NCBI RefSeq assembly: GCF_003334765.1
Contig: NZ_QOWT01000003.1
DNA length: 64,000 bases
From: Escherichia coli
Lineage (GTDB): Bacteria > Pseudomonadota > Gammaproteobacteria > Enterobacterales > Enterobacteriaceae
Direction: 5' to 3' (one strand)
Position numbers and translations under genes: made by a program. Shown here in pieces: positions 6,070-64,000 of this stretch (position 1 is the stretch's first letter; each line of letters starts with the position of its first letter). The notes below the pieces were generated by a model. The model was not told where the DNA came from. It saw only the letters and a program-made list of their open reading frames with translations, and ran no database searches.

Positions 6070-6080
6070 CGGTTCTGTGC

Positions 6081-8148: not shown

Positions 8149-8165
8149 TTCGCGATCGCAAGGTA

Positions 8166-26908: not shown

Positions 26909-26952
26909 TTCCTGCTATCCTTCGCGGCAGTTTTTCTTATTGAGGTTGCTTT

Positions 26953-39726: not shown

Positions 39727-39975
39727 ATGATCCACAGTAGCGTAAAGCGTTGGGGAAATTCACCGGCGGTGCGGATCCCGGCTACGTTAATGCAGGCGCT
39801 CAATCTGAATATTGATGATGAAGTGAAGATTGACCTGGTGGATGGCAAATTAATTATTGAGCCAGTGCGTAAAGAGCCCGTATTTACGCTTGCTGAACTG
39901 GTCAACGACATCACGCCGGAAAACCTCCACGAGAATATCGACTGGGGAGAGCCGAAAGATAAGGAAGTCTGGTAA
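39727..39975 (+). CDS. mazE: Antitoxin MazE (type II TA, AbrB/SpoVT fold)
   Basis: 82-aa [30 protein letters not shown]...; exact MazE. Confidence 0.97.
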
Positions 39976-40310
39976 TGGTAAGCCGATACGTACCCGATAT
40001 GGGCGATCTGATTTGGGTTGATTTTGACCCGACAAAAGGTAGCGAGCAAGCTGGACATCGTCCAGCTGTTGTCCTGAGTCCTTTCATGTACAACAACAAA
40101 ACAGGTATGTGTCTGTGTGTTCCTTGTACAACGCAATCAAAAGGATATCCGTTCGAAGTTGTTTTATCCGGTCAGGAACGTGATGGCGTAGCGTTAGCTG
40201 ATCAGGTAAAAAGTATCGCCTGGCGGGCAAGAGGAGCAACGAAGAAAGGAACAGTTGCCCCAGAGGAATTACAACTCATTAAAGCCAAAATTAACGTACT
40301 GATTGGGTAG
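39975..40310 (+). CDS. mazF: Toxin MazF (ACA-specific mRNA interferase)
   Basis: 111-aa [39 protein letters not shown]...; start overlaps the mazE stop. Confidence 0.97.
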   Translation: MVSRYVPDMGDLIWVDFDPTKGSEQAGHRPAVVLSPFMYNNKTGMCLCVPCTTQSKGYPFEVVLSGQERDGVALADQVKSIAWRARGATKKGTVAPEELQLIKAKINVLIG

Positions 40311-44482: not shown

Positions 44483-45355
44483 TTACCAGCGGCCGGATGC
44501 GCCGCCACCTCCAGAAGAACCGCCCCCGCCGCTAAATCCGCCGCTATCTGAGCCTCCAGCGGAACCGCTGTTGTCTGAATGATAACTTCTACCAGATGCT
44601 CTTTTCTGAAGTACACATAAACAGGTAAAGACCATAAATATGGTGAAAGTAAAAAAGAAGGAAAATACAGCAATGGAAAAAATTTTATCGGAGAACAGGA
44701 ATAAATCTAAAAGATAGATTGCTGAAATACAGACTCCACTTTTACATGCGCGACAAAAATTACTGCCTTGATGAAAAAACCAGAAAGGGAAGAACATCAC
44801 TGCAAATACCCAAAAAATAGCAAAGTAATAATGATCACTGGAAGACGCTGATTCACTTTCTGAAGGATTAGTCGGATATTGGTGTTGTGAAGTGAGTTGG
44901 TTATTCAAAGCGTTTATAGCTAGCTCTAATCCCTTAGCTAATTTTTGTTGTTTAAATGCGGGTATCATGTTGCTACGGATGATATCTCCAGCCAGAGCAT
45001 CGGTTACCTTTTCTTCCAGCCCATAACCTACCTGGATGCGGACAGTGCGATCCGACCAGGCAACAACGATCAGTATCCCATCATTACGTTTGGCATCTCC
45101 TAAACGCCAATTGTCAAAAACTCTTGTAGCATATTGTTCAATTGTCTCGTCTTTGGTTGTGGGAACAATTAATACGGCAATTTGCACTTGGGTATTATTG
45201 AAAATAGATTCTAACTTGTGCGTCAGTTCTTTCTTTTCTTGTGAGTTTAAGCTACTCGTAAGATCCGTAACTTGTTGCTGTAATTGTGGGACAATAGTTG
45301 GTTGGGCTGCAACAAAGGAACATACGAAAGTGAACATTAGTATGAAATAGCGCAT
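44483..45355 (-). CDS. ygcG: TPM-domain membrane protein with Gly/Ser-rich C-terminal tail
   Basis: ORF-track frame 44483..45424; probable start at the ATG at 45355 ([17 protein letters not shown], signal peptide); C-terminus ...[24 protein letters not shown]. Confidence 0.8.
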
Positions 45356-45647
45356 TATAAATTTCTCATTAAATCTGGATAAATAAATTGACGGCGGCAT
45401 CGGTAATTTTATATTCGTTATCATTAAAAACTAATACAGAAAAAATAAATATAATTTTGGTGAATGTTTTGACATGATTAAATCCATTTTCTTTATTTTC
45501 TTCTGACATAATACGTTACTCCCTTTAATTATTAACGATATGTTTCGCATTTTTCTTTAAACCTGCCTGTAACAGAATGTTAATAAGACATGATTGTTGT
45601 GGCAGGATCTGCAATAATTAACAATTATCCACTTCACAGAGAATGCT

Positions 45648-46319
45648 ATGCAGTACCCGATTAACGAGATGTTCCAGACCCTGCAAGGTGAGGGTTACTT
45701 TACCGGCGTTCCCGCCATTTTTATTCGTTTACAGGGATGCCCGGTTGGCTGTGCCTGGTGCGACACCAAACACACCTGGGAAAAGCTTGAGGATCGGGAA
45801 GTCTCCCTTTTCAGCATTCTGGCGAAGACCAAAGAGAGTGATAAGTGGGGGGCTGCGAGCAGTGAAGATTTGCTGGCTGTCATTGGTCGCCAGGGATACA
45901 CCGCGCGGCATGTGGTGATTACGGGTGGTGAGCCTTGCATTCATGATTTGCTGCCACTGACTGATCTGCTCGAAAAGAACGGTTTTAGCTGCCAGATCGA
46001 AACCAGTGGTACTCATGAGGTACGCTGCACACCGAATACCTGGGTTACCGTATCGCCAAAGCTGAACATGCGCGGCGGCTATGAAGTGTTGTCACAGGCA
46101 CTGGAGCGAGCCAACGAAATCAAGCATCCAGTGGGGCGCGTACGCGATATTGAAGCACTGGATGAACTACTGGCAACGCTGACCGATGATAAACCGCGAG
46201 TCATTGCACTGCAGCCGATTAGCCAAAAGGATGATGCCACACGTTTGTGCATTGAAACCTGCATTGCGCGTAATTGGCGTTTGTCGATGCAAACACATAA
46301 ATATCTAAATATTGCCTGA
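45648..46319 (+). CDS. queE: 7-carboxy-7-deazaguanine synthase (radical SAM)
   Basis: 223-aa ORF with CxxxCxxC-type motif (GCPVGCAWCDT); matches QueE (YgcF). Confidence 0.92.
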   Translation: MQYPINEMFQTLQGEGYFTGVPAIFIRLQGCPVGCAWCDTKHTWEKLEDREVSLFSILAKTKESDKWGAASSEDLLAVIGRQGYTARHVVITGGEPCIHDLLPLTDLLEKNGFSCQIETSGTHEVRCTPNTWVTVSPKLNMRGGYEVLSQALERANEIKHPVGRVRDIEALDELLATLTDDKPRVIALQPISQKDDATRLCIETCIARNWRLSMQTHKYLNIA

Positions 46320-46439
46320 TTAAACATTTATAAGCGTTATAAATGGGTGGAACCTGTAAAGACTTCTACTCATTTATATTGTTTGTCGCCTCTGAAAACT
46401 CCTCCATTTTACCCATCCAGGGCTAATCATTAGCATTCT

Positions 46440-46658
46440 CTACAAATTCTGTGGCATTAATTTTTCGCTGGAGTGAAAATTATTGCGGTAAAGTTTGGTA
46501 GATTTTAGTTTGTATAGAGTTATTTTAAATATTTACCTTTTTAATCAATGGATTAAGTGCTCTTTAACATAATGGATGTGTTGTTTGTGTGATACTATAA
46601 AGTTGGTAGATTGTGACTGGCTTAAAAAATCATTAATTAATAATAGGTTATGTTTAGA
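46440..46658 (+). promoter_or_regulatory. CRISPR leader (AT-rich)
   Basis: AT-rich stretch ending ...cattaattaataataggttatgtttaga immediately 5' of the first repeat; the distal repeat is the degenerate one, so transcription runs on the + strand. Confidence 0.6.
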
Positions 46659-47053
46659 GTGTTCCCCGCGCCAGCGGGGATAAACCGGCAAAAACCGGGC
46701 AATCGCAAAAAGGCGTAATGTGTTCCCCGCGCCAGCGGGGATAAACCTGTGTTTGCGGCATTAACGCTCACCAGCATTTCGTGTTCCCCGCGCCAGCGGG
46801 GATAAACCGACGTGGTCATGGGTGCTGCTGTTGCAGAGCCAGTGTTCCCCGCGCCAGCGGGGATAAACCGAGCAGATACACGGCTTTGTATTCCGTGCGC
46901 CCGTGTTCCCCGCGCCAGCGGGGATAAACCGAATAGCAATAGTCCATAGATTTGCGAAAACAGGTGTTCCCCGCGCCAGCGGGGATAAACCGGAGCCTGA
47001 CGAGACTACTGAGGCCGTTCTGTCGAGTTCCCCGCGCCAGCGGGGATAAACCA
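46659..47053 (+). CRISPR. Type I-E CRISPR array, 7 repeats and 6 spacers, no cas genes in window
   Basis: 29-bp repeat GTGTTCCCCGCGCCAGCGGGGATAAACCG starting at 46659, 46720, 46781, 46842, 46903, 46964 and 47025 (exact 61-bp period, 32-bp spacers); the last repeat is degenerate (GAG..., final base A). Positions cross-checked against ORF-track frames that translate the repeats. Confidence 0.97.
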
Positions 47054-47523
47054 CCATATAACCCGTTATCTCTTTCTCAAGTTTTTATATTAGCAGTACT
47101 TGTAATAAGCAACATATCCACGTAACACCTCATGTTCAAAATAGTTCTCCATGCCAGAGAGGTTCACAATTATCGATACAAAAAATTAAATTTAATCAAA
47201 GTGTTATTTGTATGATTCTTAAATCGTTAAGAAATTTTAATCTATTATTTTTTTAATATTGAATTAATGCCTGTTAATTTTTTCTTTAGAATAACAGTAT
47301 ATTTTTTAAGCTTGTTATTCATTGGTTAAGTAATAAATCTGGAAGTTTGTCTTTGTTTTGAGGCTAATGAGTGGTTTTACATAACCGCCTCTATACGCTG
47401 TTGATGAATAGTTCTTATGAATAAAGATATCCAGTTCATACTTTAAGTGAAAATTGATAAAGTGCGATTCGTATTGTCTTTTATTCTAAAGACATCGAGT
47501 GTAGTTAATATTCCTTGTAAAAA

Positions 47524-47644
47524 CAGGGATAAACCGAACTAGTTAAAGTTTTTATTATGTTCCCTGCATCAGCGGGGATAAACCGGACTTGTTATCATTT
47601 TTTAAGTTGTCGAACTTATGTTCCCCGCGTCAGCGGGGATAACC
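47524..47644 (+). CRISPR. Degenerate CRISPR mini-array (2 decayed repeats plus a partial repeat)
   Basis: cagggataaaccg (partial), atgttccctgcatcagcggggataaaccg at 47557 and atgttccccgcgtcagcggggataacc at 47618; 61-bp period between the last two; preceded by about 470 bp of very AT-rich DNA. Confidence 0.8.
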
Positions 47645-47691
47645 ATTCAGGTATGTTCAGGCCGGGCAGTTTCCCGCCCGGCCTTCCTCAC

Positions 47692-49170
47692 TTACGCATT
47701 CGACCAGCTCTGGATCGAATCCACATTCCCCAATTCCCCATGCATCACTTCATACGATTTTTTCAGGATCACATCAGTATGTTTGGTTAGGTCTTTGAAA
47801 ATGCCTTTATTCATCGCGTCGTAGCGTTTGGCATTGCTCTCAATCGGTATAAAGATATCTTTCACGCGAACCATGTTATCGACAGCCGTTGCGTAATCCG
47901 GGTATAGCCCCAGACCTACCGCTGTATTAATCGCTGCCCCCAGGCTTGCACAACCGTTAATGGCGTTACGTCGTGCCGGAAGGTTGAACACGTCGGCAAA
48001 AATCTGCATAAACAGATCGCTGTTCGAACCGCCGCCAGTAATGATCACATGCTTCGCAAAGTGATTCATTTCATTACACATATTGTCGTAATTGTTCTTC
48101 AGCGTCAGCGCCACGCTTTCCAGTATCGAACGATATATCCATGCGTAATCCATGCTGGAATCAAAGCCGATCATAATCCCGCGTTTGTACGGTTCCCACG
48201 GATTGGTCAGCCAGTCCAGCACCGTCATCAGACCATTACAGCCTGGCGGCACACAAGAAGCTTTTTTGTTGAGTAAATCTTCCGGTGAAAGATCCTGCGC
48301 CCTGGCATCCTGAATTAACGACTCGCCTAGCATGTCGCGCAGCCAGCTCACCGTCCACATGCCTTTGCGAATACCGTAACCTTCATACAGCAATGTTTGC
48401 GGAATAGAAGACATAATCGGCCAGTACGCTACTGGATCTTTCGGCAGTGCTTTGCCGTTCATCATCAATGCGATGTAAGTGCCAAGAGAAATTACCGCCG
48501 TTTCATCATCCAGTAATCCGGCCCCCAGAGCTTCTACCGGTTTATCACTGGTGGTACAAACAACCGGCAGTCCTGCCGGGAAATGTGTCGCCAGTGCGGC
48601 TTGTGGTGTGATATGTCCGAGGACGGTGCCAGGCATTTGCACATCAAACAGCATATGACGGGGGATATTAAACTTATCCATTACCGCAGCATCTTCGCTC
48701 CATGCCCAGCTCTTATAATCCACCGGCCACTGACCAAAATAGTTGGCGATATTGTCTTTAAACTCGCCGGTTAAGCGATGCGTCAGATAACCCGAAAAAG
48801 AGGTGACATATGCCACGTCAGGGTTAGTGTGTTCGTAAGGGCGTGTAACGCGTGCATCCTGCCAGCTAATCAACGGCGCAGCAGGCGTGCCATCGGCTTT
48901 CAATAACGCACGGCAGCAACGGATGGATCCCAGACCAATACCGACAATATCTTCTTTATTCCCGGCAAACTGACTCATCAAATCGTGACCGGCAAAACAT
49001 AATGATGCCCATAAATCGTCGTCAGGATGTTCTGCAGTATCGGCATCTGGCGTGTGCATCGGCTGTAATAAGCCTTTGCCTTCGCAAACCACGTTACCTT
49101 CCAGATCGTACATCACCACTTTTGTGCTCTGACTTCCGCCATCAATCCCTATGATGTATTTTTTCGACAT
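47692..49170 (-). CDS. ygcE: FGGY-family sugar kinase (substrate unknown)
   Basis: 492-aa ORF with the FGGY N-terminus MSKKYIIGIDGGSQSTKVVMYD; matches YgcE. Confidence 0.88.
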   Translation of the reverse strand: MSKKYIIGIDGGSQSTKVVMYDLEGNVVCEGKGLLQPMHTPDADTAEHPDDDLWASLCFAGHDLMSQFAGNKEDIVGIGLGSIRCCRALLKADGTPAAPLISWQDARVTRPYEHTNPDVAYVTSFSGYLTHRLTGEFKDNIANYFGQWPVDYKSWAWSEDAAVMDKFNIPRHMLFDVQMPGTVLGHITPQAALATHFPAGLPVVCTTSDKPVEALGAGLLDDETAVISLGTYIALMMNGKALPKDPVAYWPIMSSIPQTLLYEGYGIRKGMWTVSWLRDMLGESLIQDARAQDLSPEDLLNKKASCVPPGCNGLMTVLDWLTNPWEPYKRGIMIGFDSSMDYAWIYRSILESVALTLKNNYDNMCNEMNHFAKHVIITGGGSNSDLFMQIFADVFNLPARRNAINGCASLGAAINTAVGLGLYPDYATAVDNMVRVKDIFIPIESNAKRYDAMNKGIFKDLTKHTDVILKKSYEVMHGELGNVDSIQSWSNA

Positions 49171-49196
49171 GATTTTTCTCCTGTAATTTTCCTGGC

Positions 49197-50474
49197 TTAC
49201 TTGCTGCTAGCCATTGCGGGGGCGCTATCAGCAGTACGAATTTTTTGGAACAGCAAAAAGGTAAAGACAATCACCATGCCAAGCGCCGCCATGCCCATCA
49301 GCCACATATTGCGGTAGGCTTCTGCAGCGGGCAGGGTGTCTTGCCAGTGGCCGATAATTGGGTAAACGAAGACATCCGGCAGGAATCCAATCACCGAACA
49401 AATACCTACCGTGGTGCCCATAATGTAAGACGGTGTTCTCGCTTCGCCAGGGCAGGCCCAGTACAGCCCGCGTGAGGCGTAACAGGTGAATCCCAGCAGT
49501 AAAATCAGGCCAATCCCCATCGCGACCGATTGCGGGTTAGAGTTCGTGACGAGCAGGGCAGTTAACGTCAGCAGGCCGAGTACGGAAAGGATTTGGATCA
49601 CGCGGGTAGGGGATTTCACTTTGCTGTAGGTGGTGATTATGCCGCCAAGTGGGCCGCACAGCGCGCGGAATATTTTGTTGATCACAATCCCCATGTAGCT
49701 CGCCGCCACCAGCGACATGCCATACATTTCGGTCAGATAGTTGGTGGAGTAACTCAGAATGGCGTAGATGGTGAAGACGCCAAAAATCACCATGCTGCAA
49801 TACCAGGTGGTGCTGATACGCAAAACGGCCAGGATGTCGCTAAGCTGGAATGACTGTTTTTCTTCGTTATTGGCACTGCGCAGGTTGTTGTTATCGCTAA
49901 CAAAAAACCAGCACAGAATCCCCAACAAGATGTAAACCACACTATAGATGATAATGACCGTTTTCAGGCTGGTGCTGTCATCCGGTGCAAAGCGAGAAAA
50001 GACCCACATGGTAAACACCGCCAGCGACATTACACCGACGCCGCGCAGCCCTTCCATCCAGCCCATAATTTTCCCTTGCTCGCTATGATCGCCAAGCAAC
50101 GATGCAGCTTTAATCGACACCGACCACAGCATTAAAATCGTCGTTATCGCAAAGGCGATCTGAATACAGAGCATTACCCACAGCGGTGGATACGTTGCCA
50201 TTAACAGACCCAGTAATCCGGTAATGATCATCGCGGAAGTAATCATTTTGCGGTGTGAAAATTTATCGGCAATAACGCCGCTGGGGGCATAAAGAATAAT
50301 GGCCGCAATACCAAAGGTACTCATTATTAAACCTATCTCGGTATTGCTGAATCCCATAAATTTCGCCATGGGAATTTGATAAATATAACGTAAATAAGCC
50401 AGGTCGAAACTAACGCCGCCGCTAAAACTAATTATCGCGAGGGTTATCCAACGGCGATATGAGTTGTGTTGCAT
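49197..50474 (-). CDS. yqcE: MFS transporter (substrate unknown)
   Basis: 425-aa polytopic membrane ORF; matches YqcE; co-oriented with ygcE. Confidence 0.85.
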   Translation of the reverse strand: MQHNSYRRWITLAIISFSGGVSFDLAYLRYIYQIPMAKFMGFSNTEIGLIMSTFGIAAIILYAPSGVIADKFSHRKMITSAMIITGLLGLLMATYPPLWVMLCIQIAFAITTILMLWSVSIKAASLLGDHSEQGKIMGWMEGLRGVGVMSLAVFTMWVFSRFAPDDSTSLKTVIIIYSVVYILLGILCWFFVSDNNNLRSANNEEKQSFQLSDILAVLRISTTWYCSMVIFGVFTIYAILSYSTNYLTEMYGMSLVAASYMGIVINKIFRALCGPLGGIITTYSKVKSPTRVIQILSVLGLLTLTALLVTNSNPQSVAMGIGLILLLGFTCYASRGLYWACPGEARTPSYIMGTTVGICSVIGFLPDVFVYPIIGHWQDTLPAAEAYRNMWLMGMAALGMVIVFTFLLFQKIRTADSAPAMASSK

Positions 50475-50653
50475 ATCGTATTCCCATTTGTAATAGACAA
50501 AAAAAAGAGAAAAGTAAGCCGCCCTTTCAGGTGGATTACTTTTCTCAGGTCTCTAGTAATTGAAATAATAAATAACATGGAAAGCAGAGGTGTTGTGTGA
50601 GAGTAATCACGCTTCTGCTTTTTAAAATTATTTGACAATACGAATATCACACT

Positions 50654-50669
50654 GTGATTACGATCACAT
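50654..50669. promoter_or_regulatory. Consensus CRP site in the yqcE/ygcW divergent region
   Basis: TGTGAttacgaTCACA, a perfect TGTGA-N6-TCACA. Coordinates approximate. Confidence 0.6.
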
Positions 50670-50720
50670 TAGCAGTTATGCCCTTATGCTAAAAATTATC
50701 TCCAGTTACCAGAGATAATG

Positions 50721-50768
50721 AGAAAGGTAACTTCCCTCTCGCGGGGGAAGTTACCTTTCTTTTTTTTT
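50721..50768 (+). terminator. Strong intrinsic terminator hairpin in the ygcW 5' leader (candidate attenuator)
   Basis: agaaaggtaacttccc-tctcgcgg-gggaagttacctttct, a perfect 16-bp stem, followed by about 9 T; ends about 25 nt before the ygcW ATG; no upstream + strand gene to terminate. Confidence 0.7.
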
Positions 50769-50792
50769 GCCTTACGGAAATTGGAGCTAACT

Positions 50793-51578
50793 ATGTCAAT
50801 CGAATCTCTCAATGCGTTCTCAATGGATTTTTTCTCCCTGAAAGGTAAAACCGCAATTGTTACCGGTGGGAATAGCGGTTTAGGCCAGGCATTTGCCATG
50901 GCGTTGGCCAAAGCTGGCGCAAATATCTTTATTCCTAGTTTCGTCAAAGATAACGGCGAAACAAAGGAAATGATTGAAAAACAGGGTGTTGAGGTGGACT
51001 TCATGCAGGTGGATATCACCGCAGAAGGCGCGCCGCAGAAGATTATCGCTGCTTGCTGTGAGCGTTTCGGTACAGTTGATATTCTGGTTAACAATGCCGG
51101 TATTTGTAAGCTGAATAAGGTGCTGGACTTCGGTCGTGCCGACTGGGATCCGATGATTGATGTGAACCTGACCGCCGCATTCGAGTTAAGCTATGAAGCT
51201 GCAAAAATTATGATCCCGCAGAAAAGCGGCAAAATTATTAATATCTGTTCATTGTTCTCTTACTTAGGTGGACAATGGTCACCTGCATATTCTGCCACTA
51301 AACATGCTCTTGCCGGGTTCACCAAAGCTTATTGTGATGAACTAGGTCAATATAATATTCAGGTAAATGGTATCGCCCCTGGCTATTATGCAACAGATAT
51401 TACGCTGGCGACACGCAGTAATCCAGAAACCAATCAGCGCGTTCTTGATCATATTCCGGCAAACCGTTGGGGCGATACTCAGGATTTAATGGGCGCAGCC
51501 GTATTCCTCGCAAGTCCGGCATCGAATTATGTCAACGGGCATTTATTAGTGGTTGATGGCGGTTATTTAGTGCGCTAA
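50793..51578 (+). CDS. ygcW: Short-chain dehydrogenase/reductase (KduD-like)
   Basis: ORF-track frame 50718..51578; the 261-aa product starts at the ATG at 50793 (MSIESLNAF...), with Rossmann motif TGGNSGLG and catalytic YxxxK. Confidence 0.88.
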   Translation: MSIESLNAFSMDFFSLKGKTAIVTGGNSGLGQAFAMALAKAGANIFIPSFVKDNGETKEMIEKQGVEVDFMQVDITAEGAPQKIIAACCERFGTVDILVNNAGICKLNKVLDFGRADWDPMIDVNLTAAFELSYEAAKIMIPQKSGKIINICSLFSYLGGQWSPAYSATKHALAGFTKAYCDELGQYNIQVNGIAPGYYATDITLATRSNPETNQRVLDHIPANRWGDTQDLMGAAVFLASPASNYVNGHLLVVDGGYLVR

Positions 51579-51647
51579 CCCATAACGGTGGTTTCTGTTT
51601 TCTCTTATTAATGATTATTCCATTTTTATTATCAGGAAGGAATTACT

Positions 51648-53102
51648 ATGTCTTTATCTCGCGCAGCGATTGTCGACCAGCTAAAGGAAATTGTTGGTGC
51701 AGATCGCGTAATTACCGATGAAACAGTATTAAAGAAAAACAGTATTGACCGTTTTCGTAAATTTCCGGATATTCATGGCATTTATACTTTGCCGATTCCG
51801 GCAGCGGTCGTAAAACTCGGTTCCACAGAGCAAGTATCCCGTGTGCTGAATTTTATGAATGCGCACAAAATTAACGGTGTGCCGCGTACCGGTGCTTCCG
51901 CCACCGAAGGTGGGCTGGAAACTGTTGTAGAAAACTCGGTGGTGCTCGACGGCTCCGCCATGAATCAAATCATTAATATTGATATTGAGAATATGCAGGC
52001 GACGGCGCAATGTGGTGTTCCGCTGGAAGTGCTGGAAAACGCGTTGCGTGAAAAAGGTTACACCACGGGGCATTCTCCGCAGTCAAAGCCGCTGGCGCAG
52101 ATGGGCGGCCTGGTAGCAACCCGAAGTATCGGGCAGTTCTCCACACTCTACGGCGCAATCGAAGATATGGTCGTTGGTCTGGAAGCAGTATTGGCTGATG
52201 GCACCGTCACACGCATTAAAAACGTGCCACGCCGCGCGGCTGGCCCGGACATTCGTCACATCATCATCGGCAACGAAGGTGCATTGTGCTATATCACTGA
52301 AGTAACAGTGAAAATCTTTAAATTCACCCCGGAAAACAACCTCTTCTACGGCTATATCCTGGAAGACATGAAAACCGGCTTCAACATCCTGCGTGAAATC
52401 ATGGTGGAAGGGTATCGTCCGTCAATCGCTCGTTTGTATGACGCTGAAGATGGCACCCAACACTTCACCCATTTTGCCGACGGAAAATGCGTGCTGATCT
52501 TTATGGCTGAAGGTAACCCTCGCATTGCGAAGGTGACGGGCGAAGGGATTGCGGAAATCGTTGCCCGCTACCCGCAATGCCAGCGCGTGGACAGCAAGCT
52601 GATCGAAACCTGGTTTAACAACCTGAACTGGGGACCGGATAAAGTGGCTGCCGAACGTGTGCAGATCCTCAAAACCGGCAACATGGGCTTTACCACCGAA
52701 GTATCCGGCTGCTGGAGCTGCATCCACGAAATCTACGAAAGCGTTATTAACCGTATTCGTACTGAGTTCCCGCACGCCGACGACATCACCATGCTGGGCG
52801 GTCATTCCTCTCATAGCTATCAGAACGGCACCAACATGTACTTCGTCTACGATTACAACGTCGTTGACTGTAAGCCGGAAGAGGAAATCGACAAGTACCA
52901 CAATCCGCTCAACAAGATCATCTGTGAAGAAACCATTCGCCTCGGCGGTTCGATGGTGCACCACCACGGTATCGGTAAACATCGCGTTCACTGGAGCAAA
53001 CTGGAACACGGCAGCGCGTGGGCGTTGCTGGAAGGGCTGAAAAAGCAGTTCGATCCTAATGGCATTATGAATACGGGTACTATCTATCCGATTGAAAAAT
53101 AA
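51648..53102 (+). CDS. ygcU: FAD-linked oxidoreductase (FAD-binding PCMH type)
   Basis: 484-aa ORF matching YgcU. Confidence 0.85.
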   Translation: MSLSRAAIVDQLKEIVGADRVITDETVLKKNSIDRFRKFPDIHGIYTLPIPAAVVKLGSTEQVSRVLNFMNAHKINGVPRTGASATEGGLETVVENSVVLDGSAMNQIINIDIENMQATAQCGVPLEVLENALREKGYTTGHSPQSKPLAQMGGLVATRSIGQFSTLYGAIEDMVVGLEAVLADGTVTRIKNVPRRAAGPDIRHIIIGNEGALCYITEVTVKIFKFTPENNLFYGYILEDMKTGFNILREIMVEGYRPSIARLYDAEDGTQHFTHFADGKCVLIFMAEGNPRIAKVTGEGIAEIVARYPQCQRVDSKLIETWFNNLNWGPDKVAAERVQILKTGNMGFTTEVSGCWSCIHEIYESVINRIRTEFPHADDITMLGGHSSHSYQNGTNMYFVYDYNVVDCKPEEEIDKYHNPLNKIICEETIRLGGSMVHHHGIGKHRVHWSKLEHGSAWALLEGLKKQFDPNGIMNTGTIYPIEK

Positions 53103-53195
53103 TGTGTCAGGCAGCGTTCCGCGATGACGGGGCGTTGCCTTTTCGGCTTCTCAGGCGAGAAGCCGTTCTTATTACCGGACAATGAAGGGGTAAAG

Positions 53196-54533
53196 ATGAA
53201 CACTTCACCGGTGCGAATGGATGATTTACCGCTTAACCGTTTTCACTGCCGCATTGCTGCGCTCACTTTCGGCGCACACCTGACCGACGGTTATGTTCTC
53301 GGCGTCATTGGTTACGCCATTATTCAGCTTACGCCCGCCATGCAACTGACGCCGTTTATGGCGGGAATGATCGGCGGCTCGGCGCTCCTTGGTTTGTTCC
53401 TTGGCAGCCTGGTTCTTGGGTGGATCTCCGACCATATTGGTCGGCAAAAAATCTTCACCTTCAGCTTTTTGCTGATTACGCTTGCTTCGTTTTTACAATT
53501 TTTTGCCACCACGCCAGAGCATCTTATTGGACTGCGCATTTTGATTGGCATTGGTCTGGGAGGCGATTATTCAGTAGGTCACACCTTGCTGGCTGAATTT
53601 TCCCCGCGCCGCCATCGCGGTATTTTGCTGGGCGCATTCAGCGTGGTGTGGACCGTAGGCTATGTGCTGGCAAGTATTGCCGGACATCACTTTATTTCCG
53701 AAAACCCGGAGGCCTGGCGCTGGCTACTGGCATCGGCAGCTCTGCCCGCGTTGTTGATTACGTTATTACGCTGGGGAACGCCAGAATCACCACGCTGGCT
53801 ACTGCGCCAGGGGCGTTTTGCAGAAGCTCACGCTATCGTGCATCGCTATTTTGGTCCCCATGTTTTACTGGGCGATGAAGTGGTAACGGCGACCCATAAA
53901 CACATCAAAACCTTGTTCTCTTCGCGTTACTGGCGGCGCACGGCGTTTAACAGCGTCTTCTTTGTCTGCCTCGTAATCCCATGGTTTGTGATTTATACCT
54001 GGCTGCCAACTATCGCCCAGACTATTGGTCTGGAAGATGCGCTGACTGCCAGCCTGATGCTTAATGCGTTGTTAATTGTGGGCGCGCTGCTGGGATTAGT
54101 TCTGACGCACCTGCTGGCACATCGCAAATTTTTGCTGGGAAGTTTTTTGCTGCTGGCGGCAACGCTGGTAGTCATGGCCTGTTTGCCTTCCGGCAGTTCA
54201 TTAACGCTGCTGCTTTTTGTTCTCTTCAGCACCACCATTTCGGCAGTCAGTAATCTGGTGGGCATTTTGCCTGCGGAAAGTTTTCCTACTGACATTCGCT
54301 CGCTGGGCGTCGGTTTTGCCACTGCCATGAGTCGACTTGGCGCGGCGGTAAGTACTGGCCTGCTGCCGTGGGTGCTGGCGCAGTGGGGAATGCAAGTCAC
54401 CTTATTGCTCCTGGCGACAGTGTTGTTGGTTGGTTTTGTTGTGACCTGGCTATGGGCACCAGAAACTAAAGCCCTCCCGCTGGTGGCGGCGGGAAATGTA
54501 GGAGGTGCGAATGAACATTCTGTTAGCGTTTAA
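53196..54533 (+). CDS. ygcS: MFS sugar-porter-family transporter
   Basis: ORF-track frame 53124..54533; the 445-aa product starts at the ATG at 53196 (MNTSPVRMDDLPLNRFH...). Confidence 0.85.
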   Translation: MNTSPVRMDDLPLNRFHCRIAALTFGAHLTDGYVLGVIGYAIIQLTPAMQLTPFMAGMIGGSALLGLFLGSLVLGWISDHIGRQKIFTFSFLLITLASFLQFFATTPEHLIGLRILIGIGLGGDYSVGHTLLAEFSPRRHRGILLGAFSVVWTVGYVLASIAGHHFISENPEAWRWLLASAALPALLITLLRWGTPESPRWLLRQGRFAEAHAIVHRYFGPHVLLGDEVVTATHKHIKTLFSSRYWRRTAFNSVFFVCLVIPWFVIYTWLPTIAQTIGLEDALTASLMLNALLIVGALLGLVLTHLLAHRKFLLGSFLLLAATLVVMACLPSGSSLTLLLFVLFSTTISAVSNLVGILPAESFPTDIRSLGVGFATAMSRLGAAVSTGLLPWVLAQWGMQVTLLLLATVLLVGFVVTWLWAPETKALPLVAAGNVGGANEHSVSV

Positions 54534-55290
54534 AGCCGAACCGGATGCCGGAATGCTGGCGGAAAAAGAGTGGCAGGCGGCGGCTCAGGGTAAAAGCGGA
54601 CCGGATATTTCGCTACTGCGAAGTTTACTCGGTGCTGATGAACAGGCCGCTGCCGCGCTGCTGTTGGCGCAGAGAAAAAACGGTACGCCGATGTCTTTAA
54701 CCGCGTTGAGCATGGGGGATGAACGGGCATTGCACTGGCTGCGCTATCTCATGGCTCTTGGGTTTGAGGAAGCTGTATTGCTGGAGACGGCGGCAGATCT
54801 GCGCTTTGCGCCGGAATTTGTCGCTCGCCATATTGCCGAATGGCAGCATCAGAATCCGCTGGATCTGATAATTACCGGCTGCCAAAGCAGCGAAGGGCAG
54901 AATGGGCAAACGCCATTTTTGCTGGCGGAAATGCTGGGCTGGCCCTGCTTCACCCAGGTGGAGCGTTTCACTCTCGACGCGCTGTTTATCACCCTCGAAC
55001 AGCGTACTGAACATGGGTTGCGTTGTTGCCGGGTTCGCTTGCCTGCGGTGATTGCCGTGCGTCAGTGCGGTGAAGTGGCCTTGCCAGTACCGGGAATGCG
55101 CCAGCGAATGGCTGCGGGGAAAGCAGAAATTATCCGTAAAACTGTTGCTGCCGAAATGCCAGCGATGCAGTGTCTGCAACTGGCAAGAGCAGAGCAACGA
55201 CGCGGAGCGACGCTGATTGATGGGCAAACGGTAGCAGAAAAAGCTCAAAAGCTATGGCAGGACTATTTACGCCAAAGGATGCAGCCATGA
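54511..55290 (+). CDS. ygcR: Electron-transfer-flavoprotein beta-subunit-like protein
   Basis: ORF-track frame 54505..55290 (GTG); the ATG at 54511 is preceded by GGAGG; matches YgcR; overlaps the ygcS 3' end. Confidence 0.85.
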   Translation: MNILLAFKAEPDAGMLAEKEWQAAAQGKSGPDISLLRSLLGADEQAAAALLLAQRKNGTPMSLTALSMGDERALHWLRYLMALGFEEAVLLETAADLRFAPEFVARHIAEWQHQNPLDLIITGCQSSEGQNGQTPFLLAEMLGWPCFTQVERFTLDALFITLEQRTEHGLRCCRVRLPAVIAVRQCGEVALPVPGMRQRMAAGKAEIIRKTVAAEMPAMQCLQLARAEQRRGATLIDGQTVAEKAQKLWQDYLRQRMQP

Positions 55291-56147
55291 ATATCGCAAT
55301 TGTGACAATAAATCAGGAGAATGCCGCAATAGCAAGCTGGCTGGCGGCGCAGGATTTCAGCGGTTGTACCCTGGCGCACTGGCAGATTGAACCTCAGCCT
55401 GTAGTGGCGGAACAGGTGCTGGATGCGTTGGTGGAACAGTGGCAGCGAACGCCTGCGGACGTTGTTCTCTTTCCGCCGGGAACGTTTGGCGATGAACTGT
55501 CGACCCGGCTGGCCTGGCGTTTACATGGTGCAAGCATCTGCCAGGTGACTTCGTTAGATATTCCAACCGTAAGCGTGCGCAAATCCCACTGGGGAAATGC
55601 GCTAACGGCGACGCTGCAAACAGAAAAACGCCCGCTATGCCTTTCCCTGGCGCGTCAGGCGGGAGCAGCGAAAAACGCCACGTTGCCCTCTGGAATGCAA
55701 CAACTGAACATTGTCCCGGGTGCGCTTCCGGACTGGCTGGTTAGCACAGAGGATCTGAAAAATGTTACCCGCGACCCATTAGCTGAGGCCAGACGGGTGC
55801 TGGTGGTGGGGCAGGGCGGAGAGGCAGATAACCAGGAAATCGCTATGCTGGCAGAAAAGCTGGGAGCCGAAGTGGGCTACAGTCGGGCGCGAGTGATGAA
55901 CGGTGGCGTTGATGCTGAAAAAGTGATTGGTATTTCCGGACATCTGCTGGCACCTGAGGTGTGTATTGTTGTTGGCGCTTCTGGCGCAGCAGCGTTAATG
56001 GCGGGCGTACGCAATAGCAAGTTTGTGGTGGCGATTAATCATGACGCCAGCGCTGCGGTATTTTCACAGGCAGATGTTGGCGTGGTTGATGACTGGAAAG
56101 TGGTGCTGGAGGCACTGGTGACAAACATTCACGCAGATTGCCAATAA
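55287..56147 (+). CDS. ygcQ: Electron-transfer-flavoprotein alpha-subunit-like protein
   Basis: ORF-track frame 55254..56147; ATG at 55287 (MNIAIVTINQ...) overlaps the ygcR stop (ATGA). Confidence 0.85.
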   Translation: MNIAIVTINQENAAIASWLAAQDFSGCTLAHWQIEPQPVVAEQVLDALVEQWQRTPADVVLFPPGTFGDELSTRLAWRLHGASICQVTSLDIPTVSVRKSHWGNALTATLQTEKRPLCLSLARQAGAAKNATLPSGMQQLNIVPGALPDWLVSTEDLKNVTRDPLAEARRVLVVGQGGEADNQEIAMLAEKLGAEVGYSRARVMNGGVDAEKVIGISGHLLAPEVCIVVGASGAAALMAGVRNSKFVVAINHDASAAVFSQADVGVVDDWKVVLEALVTNIHADCQ

Positions 56148-56153
56148 CGTGTT

Positions 56154-56260
56154 GCCGGATGATCCTGCCTACGGTTCTGGCCTGGGGACTTGTAGGCCTG
56201 ATAAGACGCGTCAAGCGTCGCATCAGGCGCTGAATGTCGGATGTGGCGTGCGGCCTACAA
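56154..56260. repeat. REP/BIME cluster (about 3 REP units)
   Basis: gccggatgatcctgcctacgg / tgtaggcctgataagacgcgtcaagcgtcgcatcaggcgc / gtcggatgtggcgtgcggcctacaa between convergent ygcQ and ygcP. Coordinates approximate. Confidence 0.8.
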
Positions 56261-56294
56261 ATCAAACCAAATTCAATTGGTTACGATTATCCCG

Positions 56295-56870
56295 TCAAAG
56301 TAATTTTTTCGCTAACGTCCAGACCCCGGTATTCGTGGTGGAAAGCGCCACGACACCCGCGTTAATCGCATTACGCGCATCTTCTTCATCGCACACCAGC
56401 CCACCGGCAATCAGCGGTTGGCGGATTTTCTCTGTCACCCAGCCCAGCACTTTGGGCATACAGCCTGGCAGGATCTCAATACAATCCGGATTCGATTGCG
56501 CAACTTGCTTATCAATGTTGTGAAACGAAATTGAATCAACAATAAACAGGCGATGAATACAGAAAAAACCTTCCGCTCTTGCCGCTTTCAACATTGAGGC
56601 TTTGGTACTGATAATGCCGTCCGCCTCGGTCACCAGTTTCAAAAACTGAATAACGACTTCTTTATTTGACGCGCCTTCCAGCAAATCAACATGAATAAAA
56701 GCATATTTCCCGGCGTTCTTAATCTTTTTAACGATATTACTGATGGTGCAGATATTGCCGTACAACACGGAAATAAATTGGCATTCAGAATCGATTGCCA
56801 GTTGCAGGCTGGCATTATCTTTAACGGCAGCAATCACCGGATTCTGGCGGAGCAGGTGTAAGAGGGGCAT
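56295..56870 (-). CDS. ygcP: GlpP-family (glycerol-3-phosphate-responsive antiterminator-like) regulator
   Basis: 191-aa ORF matching YgcP. Confidence 0.85.
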   Translation of the reverse strand: MPLLHLLRQNPVIAAVKDNASLQLAIDSECQFISVLYGNICTISNIVKKIKNAGKYAFIHVDLLEGASNKEVVIQFLKLVTEADGIISTKASMLKAARAEGFFCIHRLFIVDSISFHNIDKQVAQSNPDCIEILPGCMPKVLGWVTEKIRQPLIAGGLVCDEEDARNAINAGVVALSTTNTGVWTLAKKLL

Positions 56871-56886
56871 AAATTATCCTTATTAT

Positions 56887-57147
56887 TTATCCAAAGCGGT
56901 AGGTGATGCCGAATCCGGAAGGCGGATAGCGCCACTGTTGTAGTGTTGATTCGTCGCACAGCAAACGGCAGGTGCCACACTCCAGGCAACTGCGATAGTC
57001 AATACGTAAGTTACCTTCCGGTGTGAGCGAAAAAAGACCTGCCGGACAGGCGTTAATCAACCGTTCTGCCGTCTGGCGCTCAACGGAGTCAGCCGGAACA
57101 ATGTGCGGCGCATCAGCAACGCGCCAGAGATTACGGGCTACAGACAT
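56887..57147 (-). CDS. ygcO: Ferredoxin-like protein (FixX-like)
   Basis: ORF-track frame 56887..57183; the 86-aa product starts at the ATG at 57147 (MSVARNLWRV...), with Cys cluster C..C..C...C. Confidence 0.82.
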   Translation of the reverse strand: MSVARNLWRVADAPHIVPADSVERQTAERLINACPAGLFSLTPEGNLRIDYRSCLECGTCRLLCDESTLQQWRYPPSGFGITYRFG

Positions 57148-58409
57148 CGCAGACTCCTGATAACATCGCCCGCCAGATGCCACAGGCCGTGACGACGTAA
57201 ATGATGCCAGAATAACTGGCGCAGCGGTGGAACAGGTTTATCACCCTGATCCCATAAATCGCGGGAAATATCCTGCATTAACGCAGGCCACGTACGGTAC
57301 CATCCCGGGCGTTGCAAAAGCGCCGGAACATGCTGATAACGCTGTAGAACATCCCACAGCAGGCTGCGCTCTACGTTGTGATGATAAAGCGGAAACAGAT
57401 TTTGCGGCTCGCGGTGCTGGCAGGCGCTTATCAGCGTTTGTGCCGCCGCCTGCGCGCCAGTCAGCGCCATATCCATGCCGCGCACGGAAATTCCGGTATT
57501 GACGCAACTGCGCAACGCATCGCCCACCAGCAGCCAGCCGTTACCGGCGTATTGCACCGGCATACTGTGCAAGCCACCTTCTGGCACCAGATGCGCACCA
57601 TACTCCAGTGATTCCGTGTTTTTGATAAGCGGGCGCACTGCCGGATGCGCTTTAAAGCGAGTCAGCAGCTCGCTTGCCGGAACACGACTTTGCGTAAGGG
57701 AAGAGAGCGGGCAAACAATCCCTAACGAGAGCGTTTGTTGATTAGTATAAAGAAATGCGCCGCCGGGTAAGTCATCACAGATCCTGCCGCTGAACAGCAA
57801 CGCTGCGCCTTCGTTATTCTCCAGATGAAAACGTTCTTCAATAGCGGATGTTTCCAGCGACAGCACTTCTTTGATCCCCAACGCCATCGCTTCGCCAGCA
57901 GGACGAGCCACTAACCCGTGACGTTCAGCCAGGACGCTGTTGGCACCTTCTGCCAGCACCACATAACGGGCGCGGAGAATATCGTCACCACAAATAACGC
58001 CACAGACTCTGCCGTTTTCTTCATACAGTGCATCCACCGTCGCTCCGGGGATGCATTCGACACCTTCTTTTTCGGCTTCGGCAACCAGCCACGGATCGAA
58101 TCGTGCACGTAATACACTCCAGGATTCACCGCCGGGCTGTAAGCTGGAAAACGTCGTTACGCCATCGGGCGTTAACAGGGAAAGGCTTTCGTGAGTGATG
58201 CGTCGTTCAAGAGGCGCGGTCAGATGAAATTGCGGGAGGAGTTCCGCGAGTGCATGGGTATATAACCGCCCGCCGGAAAGATTTTTGCTGCCGGGGATTT
58301 CAGCGCGTTCCAGTAACAAAACGGATAAACCCGCTCGCGCGCAGCGTAACGCGCAAGCGGTGCCTGCAATACCGGCACCAATAATAATAATGTCGCAGTC
58401 GTCTTCCAT
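57138..58409 (-). CDS. ygcN: FAD-dependent oxidoreductase (ETF-QO / FixC-like)
   Basis: ORF-track frame 57138..58439; the 423-aa product starts at the ATG at 58409 (MEDDCDIIIIGAGIAGTACA, FAD GxGxxG). Confidence 0.85.
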   Translation of the reverse strand: MEDDCDIIIIGAGIAGTACALRCARAGLSVLLLERAEIPGSKNLSGGRLYTHALAELLPQFHLTAPLERRITHESLSLLTPDGVTTFSSLQPGGESWSVLRARFDPWLVAEAEKEGVECIPGATVDALYEENGRVCGVICGDDILRARYVVLAEGANSVLAERHGLVARPAGEAMALGIKEVLSLETSAIEERFHLENNEGAALLFSGRICDDLPGGAFLYTNQQTLSLGIVCPLSSLTQSRVPASELLTRFKAHPAVRPLIKNTESLEYGAHLVPEGGLHSMPVQYAGNGWLLVGDALRSCVNTGISVRGMDMALTGAQAAAQTLISACQHREPQNLFPLYHHNVERSLLWDVLQRYQHVPALLQRPGWYRTWPALMQDISRDLWDQGDKPVPPLRQLFWHHLRRHGLWHLAGDVIRSLRCL

Positions 58410-58486
58410 GTCATGCCCCAGATATCCAGAACACAACACCCTAACATAGCGTTACTTAAGGGAAATTGACCGCCGACACACTCTTA

Positions 58487-58852
58487 TCATTCGCCGCGAT
58501 AGATACAACCTGCGGTGCAGGTTTCTTTTACCATCACCGCACTTAACAGCGGCACAACGGGTTTAACCTGATCCCAAATCCATTTTGCTAAAACCTCGCT
58601 GGTTGGGTTTTCCAGACCTGGAATATCATTGAGATAATGGTGATCGAGGCGCTCGTAGGTTGGTTTAAACGCCGCTTTTAGTTCAGCGAAATCGATAATC
58701 CAGCCCGTATGCGGATCGACTTCCCCGGTAATTTCCAGTCGCACCATAAAGGAATGCCCGTGCAGGCGACCACATTTATGCCCTTCCGGGACGTGTGGTA
58801 AGCGGTGAGCGGCTTCGAAGGTGAAATCTTTAAATAACGTGGTGGACATCAT
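58487..58852 (-). CDS. queD: 6-carboxy-5,6,7,8-tetrahydropterin synthase
   Basis: ORF-track frame 58487..58936 (TTG); the 121-aa product starts at the ATG at 58852 ([34 protein letters not shown]). Confidence 0.9.
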
Positions 58853-59167
58853 AATTTCTCTACAGGACGATAAAACCGCCGTAGAGTACCGGAAAGGCTG
58901 TTTTTTCGCATTATCTAAAACGACTTTGTTGCGCAAAATCGCTGATTTATCTTAATGATTGGCTAAATTCATTTGTTTTTCATTAGGTTGGTTAATCTAT
59001 TTTGTTGTTAAAGACTATTGCTAAAACAGGTTAGTCGATTTGGTTATTAGTTATCGCTATCCCGTCTTTAATCCACACCGTTTGCCCCGTTAACCTTACC
59101 TTCTCTTCTGTTTTATGGGCGCTGACAGGGCGCAGAAACAGCTTTGCTTACTGGAACATAACGACGC

Positions 59168-62679: not shown

Positions 62680-62695
62680 CCATCAGCCCGGTCTT

Positions 62696-62733
62696 GTAGG
62701 CCTGATAAGACGCGTGAGCGTCGCATCAGGCAA
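62696..62733. repeat. REP element between cysI and cysH
   Basis: tgtaggcctgataagacgcgtgagcgtcgcatcaggca. Coordinates approximate. Confidence 0.75.
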
Positions 62734-62752
62734 GGCAAACAGTGAGGAATCT

Positions 62753-63487
62753 ATGTCCAAACTCGATCTAAACGCCCTGAACGAACTGCCGAAGGTAGAT
62801 CGCATTCTGGCGCTGGCGGAAACTAACGCCCAACTGGAAAAACTGGACGCTGAAGGCCGCGTAGCCTGGGCGCTGGATAATCTGCCCGGTGAATATGTGC
62901 TTTCTTCCAGCTTCGGCATTCAGGCGGCGGTGAGCCTGCATCTGGTGAATCAGATTCGGCCGGATATTCCAGTGATCCTCACCGATACCGGTTATCTGTT
63001 TCCGGAAACCTACCGCTTTATTGACGAGTTAACGGACAAACTCAAGCTCAACCTGAAAGTGTACCGTGCTACCGAAAGCGCCGCCTGGCAGGAAGCACGC
63101 TACGGCAAACTGTGGGAACAGGGCGTTGAAGGCATTGAAAAGTACAATGACATCAACAAAGTCGAACCGATGAACCGGGCGCTGAAAGAACTTAACGCGC
63201 AAACCTGGTTTGCTGGCCTGCGCCGCGAACAATCCGGCAGCCGCGCCAATTTACCGGTGCTGGCAATTCAGCGTGGCGTATTTAAAGTGCTGCCGATTAT
63301 CGACTGGGATAACCGAACTATTTATCAGTACCTGCAAAAACATGGCCTGAAATATCACCCATTATGGGATGAAGGATATTTATCGGTCGGTGATACCCAT
63401 ACAACCCGTAAATGGGAACCTGGCATGTCGGAAGAAGAAACACGTTTCTTTGGCTTAAAAAGGGAATGTGGATTGCACGAAGGGTAA
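62753..63487 (+). CDS. cysH: Phosphoadenosine phosphosulfate (PAPS) reductase
   Basis: ORF-track frame 62600..63487; the 244-aa product starts at the ATG at 62753 ([21 protein letters not shown]...), ending ...ECGLHEG. Confidence 0.95.
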
Positions 63488-63751
63488 ATATTGCCGGATA
63501 AATTAAACGCCTCTGTCAGAAATGATGGGGGCGTTTTTATTTTGCGAGCAGTATTCCTGATTTTAAACGTGAACGCCGCTGGAAGAATTATCAGGTATAG
63601 AATGGCGTCGGGTGCTTGAGGCTGTCTGGCGTTAAGCATTCGCGAGGTTCCAGATGGACAAAAGCCCCAGGCGATATTTCTATCAACCTGAGGCTTACGT
63701 TCGAACCCAAACAATTCGAATGTTAGTCTCTTCTTTGCAGGGAGGCAAGAC

Positions 63752-63904: not shown

Positions 63905-64000
63905 CCACCACGCGGGGGTAAAACCCATAAGCGCTAACTTAAGGGTTGAACCATCTGAAGAATGCGACGCCTCGGTGCCTCGTTAAGACGATGCCTCGCG

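Follow-up and report, generated by a model that had tools for sequence, protein, structure and literature searches.

A type I-E CRISPR array between queE and ygcE of an Escherichia coli contig, assigned to CRISPR2.3 of the CRISPR-II locus, and its non-K-12-like CRISPR-I side

A type I-E CRISPR array (E. coli type 2 repeat) was identified at positions 46659-47053 of a 64,000-nucleotide stretch of the Escherichia coli contig NZ_QOWT01000003.1 (assembly GCF_003334765.1), the whole of which is referred to below as the window. Judged by its sequence, the array can be assigned to CRISPR2.3 of the CRISPR-II locus, an array that is already known, has been characterised in K-12 and is catalogued across E. 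coli. It is considered nearly certain that the best joint description is that of a CRISPR2.3 array which would be served by Cas proteins in trans if the cas operon has been kept, and would otherwise be an inert relic, with spacers that hold a record of temperate phages. The coordinates of the features are collected in Table 1.

Table 1. Features of the CRISPR-II locus and of the cas-side end of the window
Feature	Position	Strand	Remarks
queE (ygcF)	45648-46319	+	Left flank of CRISPR-II; open reading frame, RefSeq annotation of identical sequence
Leader 2.3	46320-46658	+	AT-rich; 339 bp from the queE stop to repeat 1
CRISPR2.3 array	46659-47053	+	7 repeats, 6 spacers; annotated CRISPR at the same coordinates in EC416
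Spacer 1	46688-46719	+	Leader-proximal, newest; no match
Repeat 2	46720-46748	+	Ends in CCT; known K-12 CRISPR2.3 polymorphism (PMC3338789)
Spacer 2	46749-46780	+	Resembles HK97-type portal gene
Spacer 3	46810-46841	+	No credible match; carries the BG3415 primer site
Spacer 4	46871-46902	+	No match
Spacer 5	46932-46963	+	Putative source Rac-like prophage integrase gene, antisense strand
Spacer 6	46993-47024	+	Leader-distal, oldest; no target found
Terminal degenerate repeat GAGTTCCCCGCGCCAGCGGGGATAAACCA	47025-47053	+	
CRISPR2.2 remnant	47508-47646	+	3 degenerate units; name from PMC3903273
CRISPR2.2 unit 1 ATATTCCTTGTAAAAACAGGGATAAACCG	47508-47536		
CRISPR2.2 unit 2 ATGTTCCCTGCATCAGCGGGGATAAACCG	47558-47586		
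CRISPR2.2 unit 3 ATGTTCCCCGCGTCAGCGGGGATAACCA	47619-47646		
ygcE	47692-49170	-	Right flank of CRISPR-II
cysH	62753-63487	+	Last housekeeping gene before CRISPR-I/cas; coordinates transferred, offset 44091
hok/sok	63610-63905	+	Rfam sok 63610-63767 (113 bits); Hok/Gef open reading frame 63753-63905
IS421 (IS4 family), first 86 nt	63915-64000		Window ends inside; boundary about +/-3 nt

The array is built of seven repeats of 29 bp and six spacers of 32 nt, all different, with a period of exactly 61 bp. The repeats start at 46659, 46720, 46781, 46842, 46903, 46964 and 47025 (46659 + 61*i, i = 0-6), and five of the seven are exact copies of GTGTTCCCCGCGCCAGCGGGGATAAACCG. Repeat 2 ends in T (AACCT), giving CCT instead of CCG, and repeat 7 (GAG...AACCA) has two mismatches to GTGTTCCCCGCGCCAGCGGGGATAAACCG. 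When the whole 64-kb window was scanned for the repeat at up to three mismatches, the seven array sites were the only ones found, and the number of matches expected by chance was 0.00 (100 dinucleotide-preserving shuffles). For the repeat RNA, a hairpin with a stem of 7 bp and a loop of 4 nt was predicted (-15.2 kcal/mol, z = -3.2), and the same structure was obtained for every unit. All seven copies match the type I-E repeat GWGTTCCCCGCGCCAGCGGGGATAAACCG (29 bp, 28+1) with 0-2 mismatches. The first repeats of the cas2-adjacent arrays of SHP24 (E1) and K-12 (E2) match over the 27 bases compared, except for the known A/T variant at position 2. The array was read on the + strand, from queE towards ygcE, because of the orientation of the repeats, the degenerate distal repeat and the position of the leader; the AUAAACCG handle is then on the 3' side of the hairpin. 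Type I-E is indicated by the repeat itself, by the Cas6e-type hairpin with its 8-nt handle, by unique spacers of about 32 nt at 61 bp and by a protospacer with an AWG PAM, that of spacer 5. The initial annotation had described seven 29-bp repeats and six 32-bp spacers with a 61-bp period, a degenerate repeat at the end, an assignment to type I-E and an AT-rich leader on the queE side. All of this was confirmed, position by position for the repeats and spacers, with repeat 2 polymorphic as well; the GC content is 30.4% in the leader, 59.7% in the array and 50.7% in the window.

Two general-purpose searches gave little signal at the locus. Tandem Repeats Finder reported just 2.5 copies, which is expected for a CRISPR array since the spacers differ. 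No CRISPR-related family was found with Rfam, either at gathering thresholds (40-52 kb and the whole window) or in E-value mode at the locus, where the sole match, to Chlorobi-1 (E = 0.46), was rejected as chance.

The order queE, leader, CRISPR2.3, CRISPR2.2, ygcE is that of CRISPR-II, which has been defined as the locus between ygcE and ygcF, containing either one array or CRISPR2.2 and CRISPR2.3 placed 0.5 kb apart, with a promoter-bearing leader adjoining CRISPR2.3 (Almendros 2014, PMC3903273). Positions 46300-47700 are 100% identical to K-12 derivatives, in which RefSeq annotates a 'CRISPR' between queE and ygcE. The leader, the seven repeats, the six spacers, the CCT end of repeat 2, the terminal repeat and the downstream CRISPR2.2 are all shared with K-12 CRISPR2.3. 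The differences are limited to the distant context, in which the window departs from K-12 from about 60300 on and carries hok/sok and IS421 after cysH. The primers published for 'CRISPR 2.3' of K-12 map here as well, BG3414 in the leader at 46497-46519 and BG3415 in spacer 3. The CCT polymorphism of repeat 2 has been described for K-12 CRISPR2.3, and this array was found to gain spacers in K-12, in 74% of plasmid-cured clones (Swarts 2012, PMC3338789). CRISPR2.1, the array of CRISPR-I between iap and cas2, shares with CRISPR2.3 the 29-bp repeat family, the 61-bp period, blocks of the leader and the Cas proteins that serve it. It differs from CRISPR2.3 in being physically linked to cas2 and in having a leader that co-varies with the cas variant (L1/L2); leader 2.3 does not change between cas-E1, cas-E2 and cas-less strains (PMC3903273). 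Of 5426 complete E. coli genomes, 677 carry all six spacers and 1707 carry one or more of them. The freezing of one six-spacer set in 677 genomes suggests a long time without acquisition in nature.

The leader is 100% identical to that of K-12 (cas-E2), and near-identical leaders were found in cas-E1 and cas-less strains. Its last ~100 nt could be aligned with both CRISPR2.1 leader variants, L2 (K-12) and L1 (cas-E1 strain), the common blocks being CTCTTTAA.ATAA.GGA..TGTT, GTTGGT.G.TTGT and a TTAG next to repeat 1. The role of the leader in integration and the positions of the Cas1-Cas2 sites have been described, and an IHF site has been placed at -9 to -35 (PMC10011333). In a search for the IHF consensus WATCAANNNNTTR, the final 100 nt of the leader gave no site with one mismatch or fewer. 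An IHF-like site that differs from the consensus at two bases is located at -31 to -19, and the K-12 CRISPR2.1 leader has a comparable two-mismatch site at -35 to -23; this placement may lend weak support to a role for IHF. The leaders of CRISPR2.1 and CRISPR2.3 both carry promoters (PMC3903273). A scan of 46250-47750 for sigma-70 and terminator consensus sequences gave nothing above shuffle expectation on the + strand, and no strong + strand promoter was found in the leader.

A second array, the CRISPR2.2 remnant, was absent from the initial annotation. It begins 455 bp past CRISPR2.3, and its three units are separated by spacers of 21 nt and 32 nt. All three units keep the 7-bp/4-nt hairpin, and in unit 1 two changes from the consensus are paired, C9-G18 to U-A and C11-G16 to U-A. 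A single substitution, in unit 3, was observed among O157:H7, M8, JNU and this strain. Across strains the block hardly varies, leaving no covariation by which the hairpins could be assessed. In GU2018_CL13 both arrays are fused into a single two-repeat array, in agreement with the published fused form, 'CRISPR2.2-3'. No protospacer for the 32-nt CRISPR2.2 spacer, GACTTGTTATCATTTTTTAAGTTGTCGAACTT, was found in IMG/VR, where the sole match was the CRISPR2.2 locus on a chromosomal contig.

The spacers of CRISPR2.3 were searched by BLAST against 50,697 phage records and 72,556 plasmids (E <= 10), by pattern scans of IMG/VR and against 5426 complete E. coli genomes. Spacer 5 could be traced, by sequence match, to the integrase gene of a Rac-like prophage. 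One match was obtained in IMG/VR, UViG_2713896897_000016 (4936-4967, minus strand), in which the protospacer is identical at 32/32 positions, including five positions that had been set to N in the search pattern. ATG, an AWG PAM, is located immediately 5' of the protospacer, and the match is 33/33 when the PAM G, equal to the last repeat base, is counted. The target is a tyrosine integrase open reading frame of 429 aa (phrog_1, E = 3e-62) with about 48% protein identity to IntR of Rac-type phages. The viral sequence is contig BBVG01000029.1 of GCA_001514595.1, which encodes the same integrase; there the integrase ends a block with KilR, Gam, YdfE and Gp157-type genes and adjoins nudL-sdaA-pdeD. 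These host genes are 87.7% identical to E. coli, and the host of the spacer 5 target is therefore a related but different enterobacterium, perhaps Escherichia albertii. A 401-nt stretch of the integrase gene had no counterpart in the 5426 E. coli genomes, and the protospacer with its PAM had no exact match in 100,044 species-representative genomes. The 33-nt string of PAM G and spacer 5 was found in 1255 of the 5426 genomes, in CRISPR arrays in every match listed.

Spacer 2 resembles the portal genes of HK97-type temperate phages of Klebsiella and Escherichia, with 28/30 identical positions by BLAST. Full-length comparison gave 29/32, with mismatches at positions 2, 6 and 12. At least 120 IMG/VR contigs were retrieved with a pattern degenerate at every third base, the best of them matching at 30/32, and the mismatches of this best match fall at codon third positions plus position 2. 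The likeness was attributed to homology and not to chance, because the differences fall at codon third positions. Among the phages found, the flanking triplet was GCG, GCC or AAC, never AWG, and position 2 of the seed was mismatched in almost all of them. PAM position -1 coincides, in the portal genes, with the third base of a codon and is variable. It is known that the final base of a repeat is copied from PAM position -1 (PMC10011333), and a CCT repeat end has been seen with an AAT PAM (Swarts 2012, PMC3338789). The final T of repeat 2 therefore points to a spacer 2 donor that probably had a non-consensus PAM ending in T.

No credible match was found for spacers 1, 3, 4 and 6 in phages or plasmids (BLAST, E <= 10) or in IMG/VR. 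The BLAST matches of spacer 3, to a Shewanella phage (E = 1) and a Gemmatirosa plasmid (E = 3), were at chance level and were rejected. Among the matches listed for E. coli chromosomes, these four spacers occurred only in CRISPR arrays. Among the matches listed, spacer 6 turns up in lineages as divergent as O26, O111 and a B strain, which is the usual pattern of old distal spacers with little recent acquisition. The initial annotation regarded the spacers as records of past invaders that may include self-targets, and proposed a BLAST check. The first part gained support, with the portal match of spacer 2 from BLAST against phages and plasmids and the match of spacer 5 from the IMG/VR scan; the second part did not, as the spacers had no target elsewhere in the window when up to 10 mismatches were allowed. 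Two old spacers have thus been traced to temperate phage genes, in agreement with a published view in which prophages are the main targets of E. coli I-E spacers (PMC10910852).

No cas gene was found in the window, in which every gene from 1 to 64000 was named by transfer from near-identical annotated genomes. This much had been stated correctly in the initial annotation. Its placement of the K-12 cas operon, beyond cysH, about 17 kb from the array and outside the window, had to be corrected: cas3 of true K-12 starts 16.8 kb from the array, at the equivalent of position 63847 and hence some 150 nt short of the end of the window; the window has hok/sok and IS421 there. Compared to a K-12 derivative, the window has six differences between 26300 and ~60300, diverges within cysI and is non-collinear after cysH. 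The boundary of IS421 was set by comparing both IS421 copies of NCTC9087. Only strains with the K-12 (E2) cas variant lack hok/sok (Almendros 2014, PMC3903273), and the presence of hok/sok and IS421 after cysH therefore shows that the CRISPR-I locus is not K-12-like here. If kept, the cas operon would start at about 65448, approximately 1.4 kb past the end of the window and about 18.4 kb from the array. In the cas-bearing arrangement, as judged from relatives, IS421 would be followed by GCGTACTGAATTGTGATGG... and then by cas3, starting at about +1448 past 64000. The term 'orphan', applied to the array in the initial annotation, is not the one generally used for it, CRISPR2.3 being a regular second I-E array that acquires spacers in K-12 (PMC3338789).

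The cas locus was compared in strains that are 99.98-100% identical to the right-hand 17.7-46 kb of the window. Over 1-25000 and 46300-64000 taken together, no record was free of differences. SHP24, which is 100% identical to window 46300-64000, has cas3-casA-casB-cas7-cas5-cas6e-cas1-cas2-CRISPR2.1-iap after IS421, with cas7 frameshifted. The same operon follows IS421 in NCTC9087, with cas3 frameshifted and a second IS421 inside CRISPR2.1. HSP425 has lost the Cascade genes: past its IS421 come cas3, a fusion of a casA fragment with a cas2 fragment, and a further IS421 in direct orientation. In EC416, which does not differ from the window over 46300-64000, and in E. coli C, which has 3 SNPs relative to window 44493-64000 (19.5 kb), a 334-bp CRISPR2.1 remnant directly follows IS421 and iap comes next; in the B strain AS19 the CRISPR2.1 remnant directly after IS421 is 273 bp long, again with iap behind it. 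None of the near-identical genomes examined was annotated with a fully intact cas operon. From these relatives, an intact or nearly intact cas operon and its complete deletion would appear to be about equally probable in the source strain.

There is close to an even chance that the array has been stranded, through recombination between an IS421 after hok and another, in direct orientation, inside CRISPR2.1, with loss of cas3 to cas2 and a relic left behind. The arrangement hok-IS421-CRISPR remnant-iap in E. coli C, EC416 and AS19 is the product that such a deletion would give, and HSP425, with its two direct IS421 copies, has the layout predicted for its precursor. The position of the IS421-CRISPR2.1 junction in strain 2452 agrees exactly with the spacing that the deletion arrangement predicts. 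The window agrees base for base with the cas-less E. coli C and B strains at the hok-IS421 junction, and E. coli C shares the six-spacer CRISPR2.3 array, with the 3 SNPs in 19.5 kb mentioned above; the B strain differs by a longer CRISPR2.3 array of 823 bp. The IS421-CRISPR2.1 junction was found in 268 of the 5426 complete genomes, a count that includes some genomes with the IS421-cas3 junction as well, in which a second IS421 lies beside cas genes. The comparison is further limited by the window showing the near side of IS421 only, for 86 nt.

Somewhat below an even chance is given to a functional second array, served in trans by a cas-E1 operon past IS421 (~65448) and silent solely by H-NS repression, as in K-12. 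This is what SHP24 would suggest, having cas3 to cas2 directly after IS421 and no difference from the window over 46300-64000, and the IS421-cas3 junction was present in 326 of the 5426 complete genomes. CRISPR2.3 is moreover an active acquisition site in K-12 (PMC3338789). However, lesions were observed even in the cas-bearing relatives, namely the cas7 frameshift of SHP24, the cas3 frameshift of NCTC9087 and the Cascade deletion of HSP425, and the position of IS421 between hok and cas3 may disturb the cas3 promoter region. The activity of CRISPR2.3 in the source strain would appear less certain than the identity of the array, against which no evidence speaks, because of the lack of cas genes in the window, the cas lesions of the relatives, the lack of a strong sigma-70 site, the two mismatches of the IHF-like site, the frozen spacers and the seed and PAM mismatches of spacer 2.

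CRISPR2.2 could yield a crRNA-like RNA, since its hairpins have been kept through paired changes in a near-invariant block. It is very improbable, in our opinion, that roles of this kind exist, with CRISPR2.2 giving a fixed crRNA-like RNA from GACTTGTTATCATTTTTTAAGTTGTCGAACTT (regulatory or decoy) or acting as a structured terminator or insulator before ygcE, or, in a related view, with CRISPR2.3 kept in cas-less strains as a landing pad for cas modules acquired anew. Orphan E. coli CRISPR4 (I-F) arrays have anti-cas-F spacers that are proposed to block re-acquisition of CRISPR-Cas. CRISPR2.3 is similar in that such an array is able to persist without adjacent cas genes; it differs in repeat type, that of CRISPR4 being I-F, and in having spacers without a match to the sampled cas genes. 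That CRISPR2.3 is an orphan array kept for a non-immune role, either through anti-cas spacers blocking re-acquisition or through a regulatory crRNA-like transcript, was judged very improbable. The identical six-spacer array in 677 genomes, including strains without cas genes, and the hairpins retained in the CRISPR2.2 units could be taken to favour it, but the persistence is explained by clonal descent in phylogroup A, and conservation beyond identity by descent could not be shown. No spacer matched elsewhere in the window. The closest spacer had 12 mismatches of 32 to the sampled cas-E1 and cas-E2 genes (the whole E1 operon; E2 cas3, part of casA, part of cas6e, cas1 and cas2), and an anti-cas array was rejected on these distances. 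A REP/BIME-like interspersed repeat or a chance periodicity can be dismissed outright, given seven repeat matches where none was expected, the exact 61-bp period with unique spacers, a repeat equal to that of cas2-adjacent arrays, the RefSeq 'CRISPR' annotation and the phage protospacers of two spacers.

For a CRISPR2.3 array with Cas proteins supplied in trans, the mechanism established in the literature for the identical K-12 array would be expected to apply to the window. Transcription would proceed rightward across the array from a promoter in the AT-rich leader, and Cas6e would cut each repeat at the 3' base of the 7-bp hairpin. The resulting crRNA would be 61 nt long: 8 nt of 5' handle (AUAAACCG), 32 nt of spacer and 21 nt of 3' handle that form the hairpin. 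Cascade would load the crRNA and bind matching protospacer DNA with an AWG PAM, whereupon Cas3 would degrade the DNA. New spacers would be inserted at the junction of the leader and repeat 1 by Cas1-Cas2 with IHF. All of these Cas proteins would come from the CRISPR-I cas operon beyond cysH, of the hok/sok type and interrupted by IS421. Alternatively, the cas operon may have been removed or inactivated, as in the close relatives, and the array would then be an inert, inherited relic. The spacers would represent a record of old temperate-phage encounters, with a Rac-like integrase in spacer 5 and an HK97-type portal in spacer 2.

An annotation moved from K-12, such as a cas operon 17 kb away, can mislead even though the array itself is identical to that of K-12. 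The six-spacer set, together with hok/sok and IS421, constitutes a strain-typing signature. This signature places the window in the K-12/C-like part of phylogroup A, with a CRISPR-I locus of a non-K-12 type that is prone to IS421-mediated decay.

The only perfect target of a spacer of CRISPR2.3, the main type I-E array of the window, was found in the integrase gene of a Rac-like prophage (GCA_001514595.1, contig BBVG01000029.1, positions 1-7290), which is matched by spacer 5. The prophage carries KilR, Gam, YdfE and Gp157-type genes and is integrated adjoining nudL-sdaA in a host whose core genes are 87.7% identical to those of E. coli. None of the 5426 complete E. coli genomes contained a counterpart of a 401-nt stretch of the integrase gene around the protospacer.

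The leader of CRISPR2.3 was observed to contain a partial upstream copy of its own repeat-proximal end. In the upstream copy, TAAAGTTTGGTAGATTTTAGTTTGTATAGAG is similar to TAAAGTTGGTAGATTGT...GTTATGTTTAGAG, and no repeat follows it. It may be left over from an old duplication of the leader, or from a repeat that has since been lost.

CRISPR2.2, a second and degenerate array, consists of three repeat units, all of them decayed, separated by spacers of 21 nt and 32 nt. A Cas6e-type hairpin was retained in all three units, in unit 1 by means of paired substitutions, and the block is near-invariant across strains O157:H7, M8 and JNU. Beyond the last unit an inverted repeat rich in GC was observed, with the arms GGCCGGGC and GCCCGGCC separated by 8 nt. 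It may terminate transcription of ygcE, read-through from the two arrays, or both; in the terminator scan no T-run of the kind required was found at this repeat.

Positions of the features are collected in the table. CsrB, GcvB and ES036 are ordinary small-RNA genes, and neither they nor mazEF are related to the CRISPR array. At the site of the single tRNA-Met gene, EC416, a relative lacking the cas operon, carries three copies in tandem at a spacing of 110 bp, and other complete genomes, including K-12 laboratory derivatives, apparently have one or two copies, as judged from alignment spans. The difference between strains is one of tandem copy number.

Features of the window outside the main array
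Feature	Position	Strand	Remark
tRNA-Met	3603-3679	-	single gene
ES036 small RNA	5107-5149		Rfam, 46.5 bits
GcvB small RNA	8165-8370		Rfam, 199 bits
CsrB small RNA	26551-26910		Rfam, 380 bits
mazEF toxin-antitoxin pair	~39727-40310		annotation transfer
Upstream leader copy	46470-46500		partial copy of 46595-46658
CRISPR2.2	47508-47646		455 bp downstream of CRISPR2.3
Inverted repeat	47660-47683		between last CRISPR2.2 unit and ygcE stop codon
hok/sok, type I toxin-antitoxin	63610-63905		intact; between cysH and cas region
IS421 (IS4 family)	63915-64000		first 86 nt; window stops within element

Identification of hok/sok was based on an Rfam match to sok (113 bits) and a Hok/Gef open reading frame of 50 aa. 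According to Almendros 2014 (PMC3903273), this locus is missing only from strains that carry the K-12 (E2) cas variant. Its presence here therefore marks a non-K-12 arrangement of CRISPR-I, the cas-bearing locus beyond cysH. Up to ~60300 the window is nearly identical to K-12, with six differences in about 34 kb. Divergence then sets in sharply across cysI-cysH (~60300-63500), at 27 and next 7 mismatches per kb, after which collinearity is lost. This step has the appearance of the left edge of an exchange of the CRISPR-I/cas module by recombination, as has been described for E. coli. IS421 is inserted about 10 nt past the hok stop codon. In relatives the same IS421 copy was apparently one partner of an IS421-IS421 recombination that removed the whole cas operon; E. 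coli C, EC416 and the B strain AS19 show this deletion.
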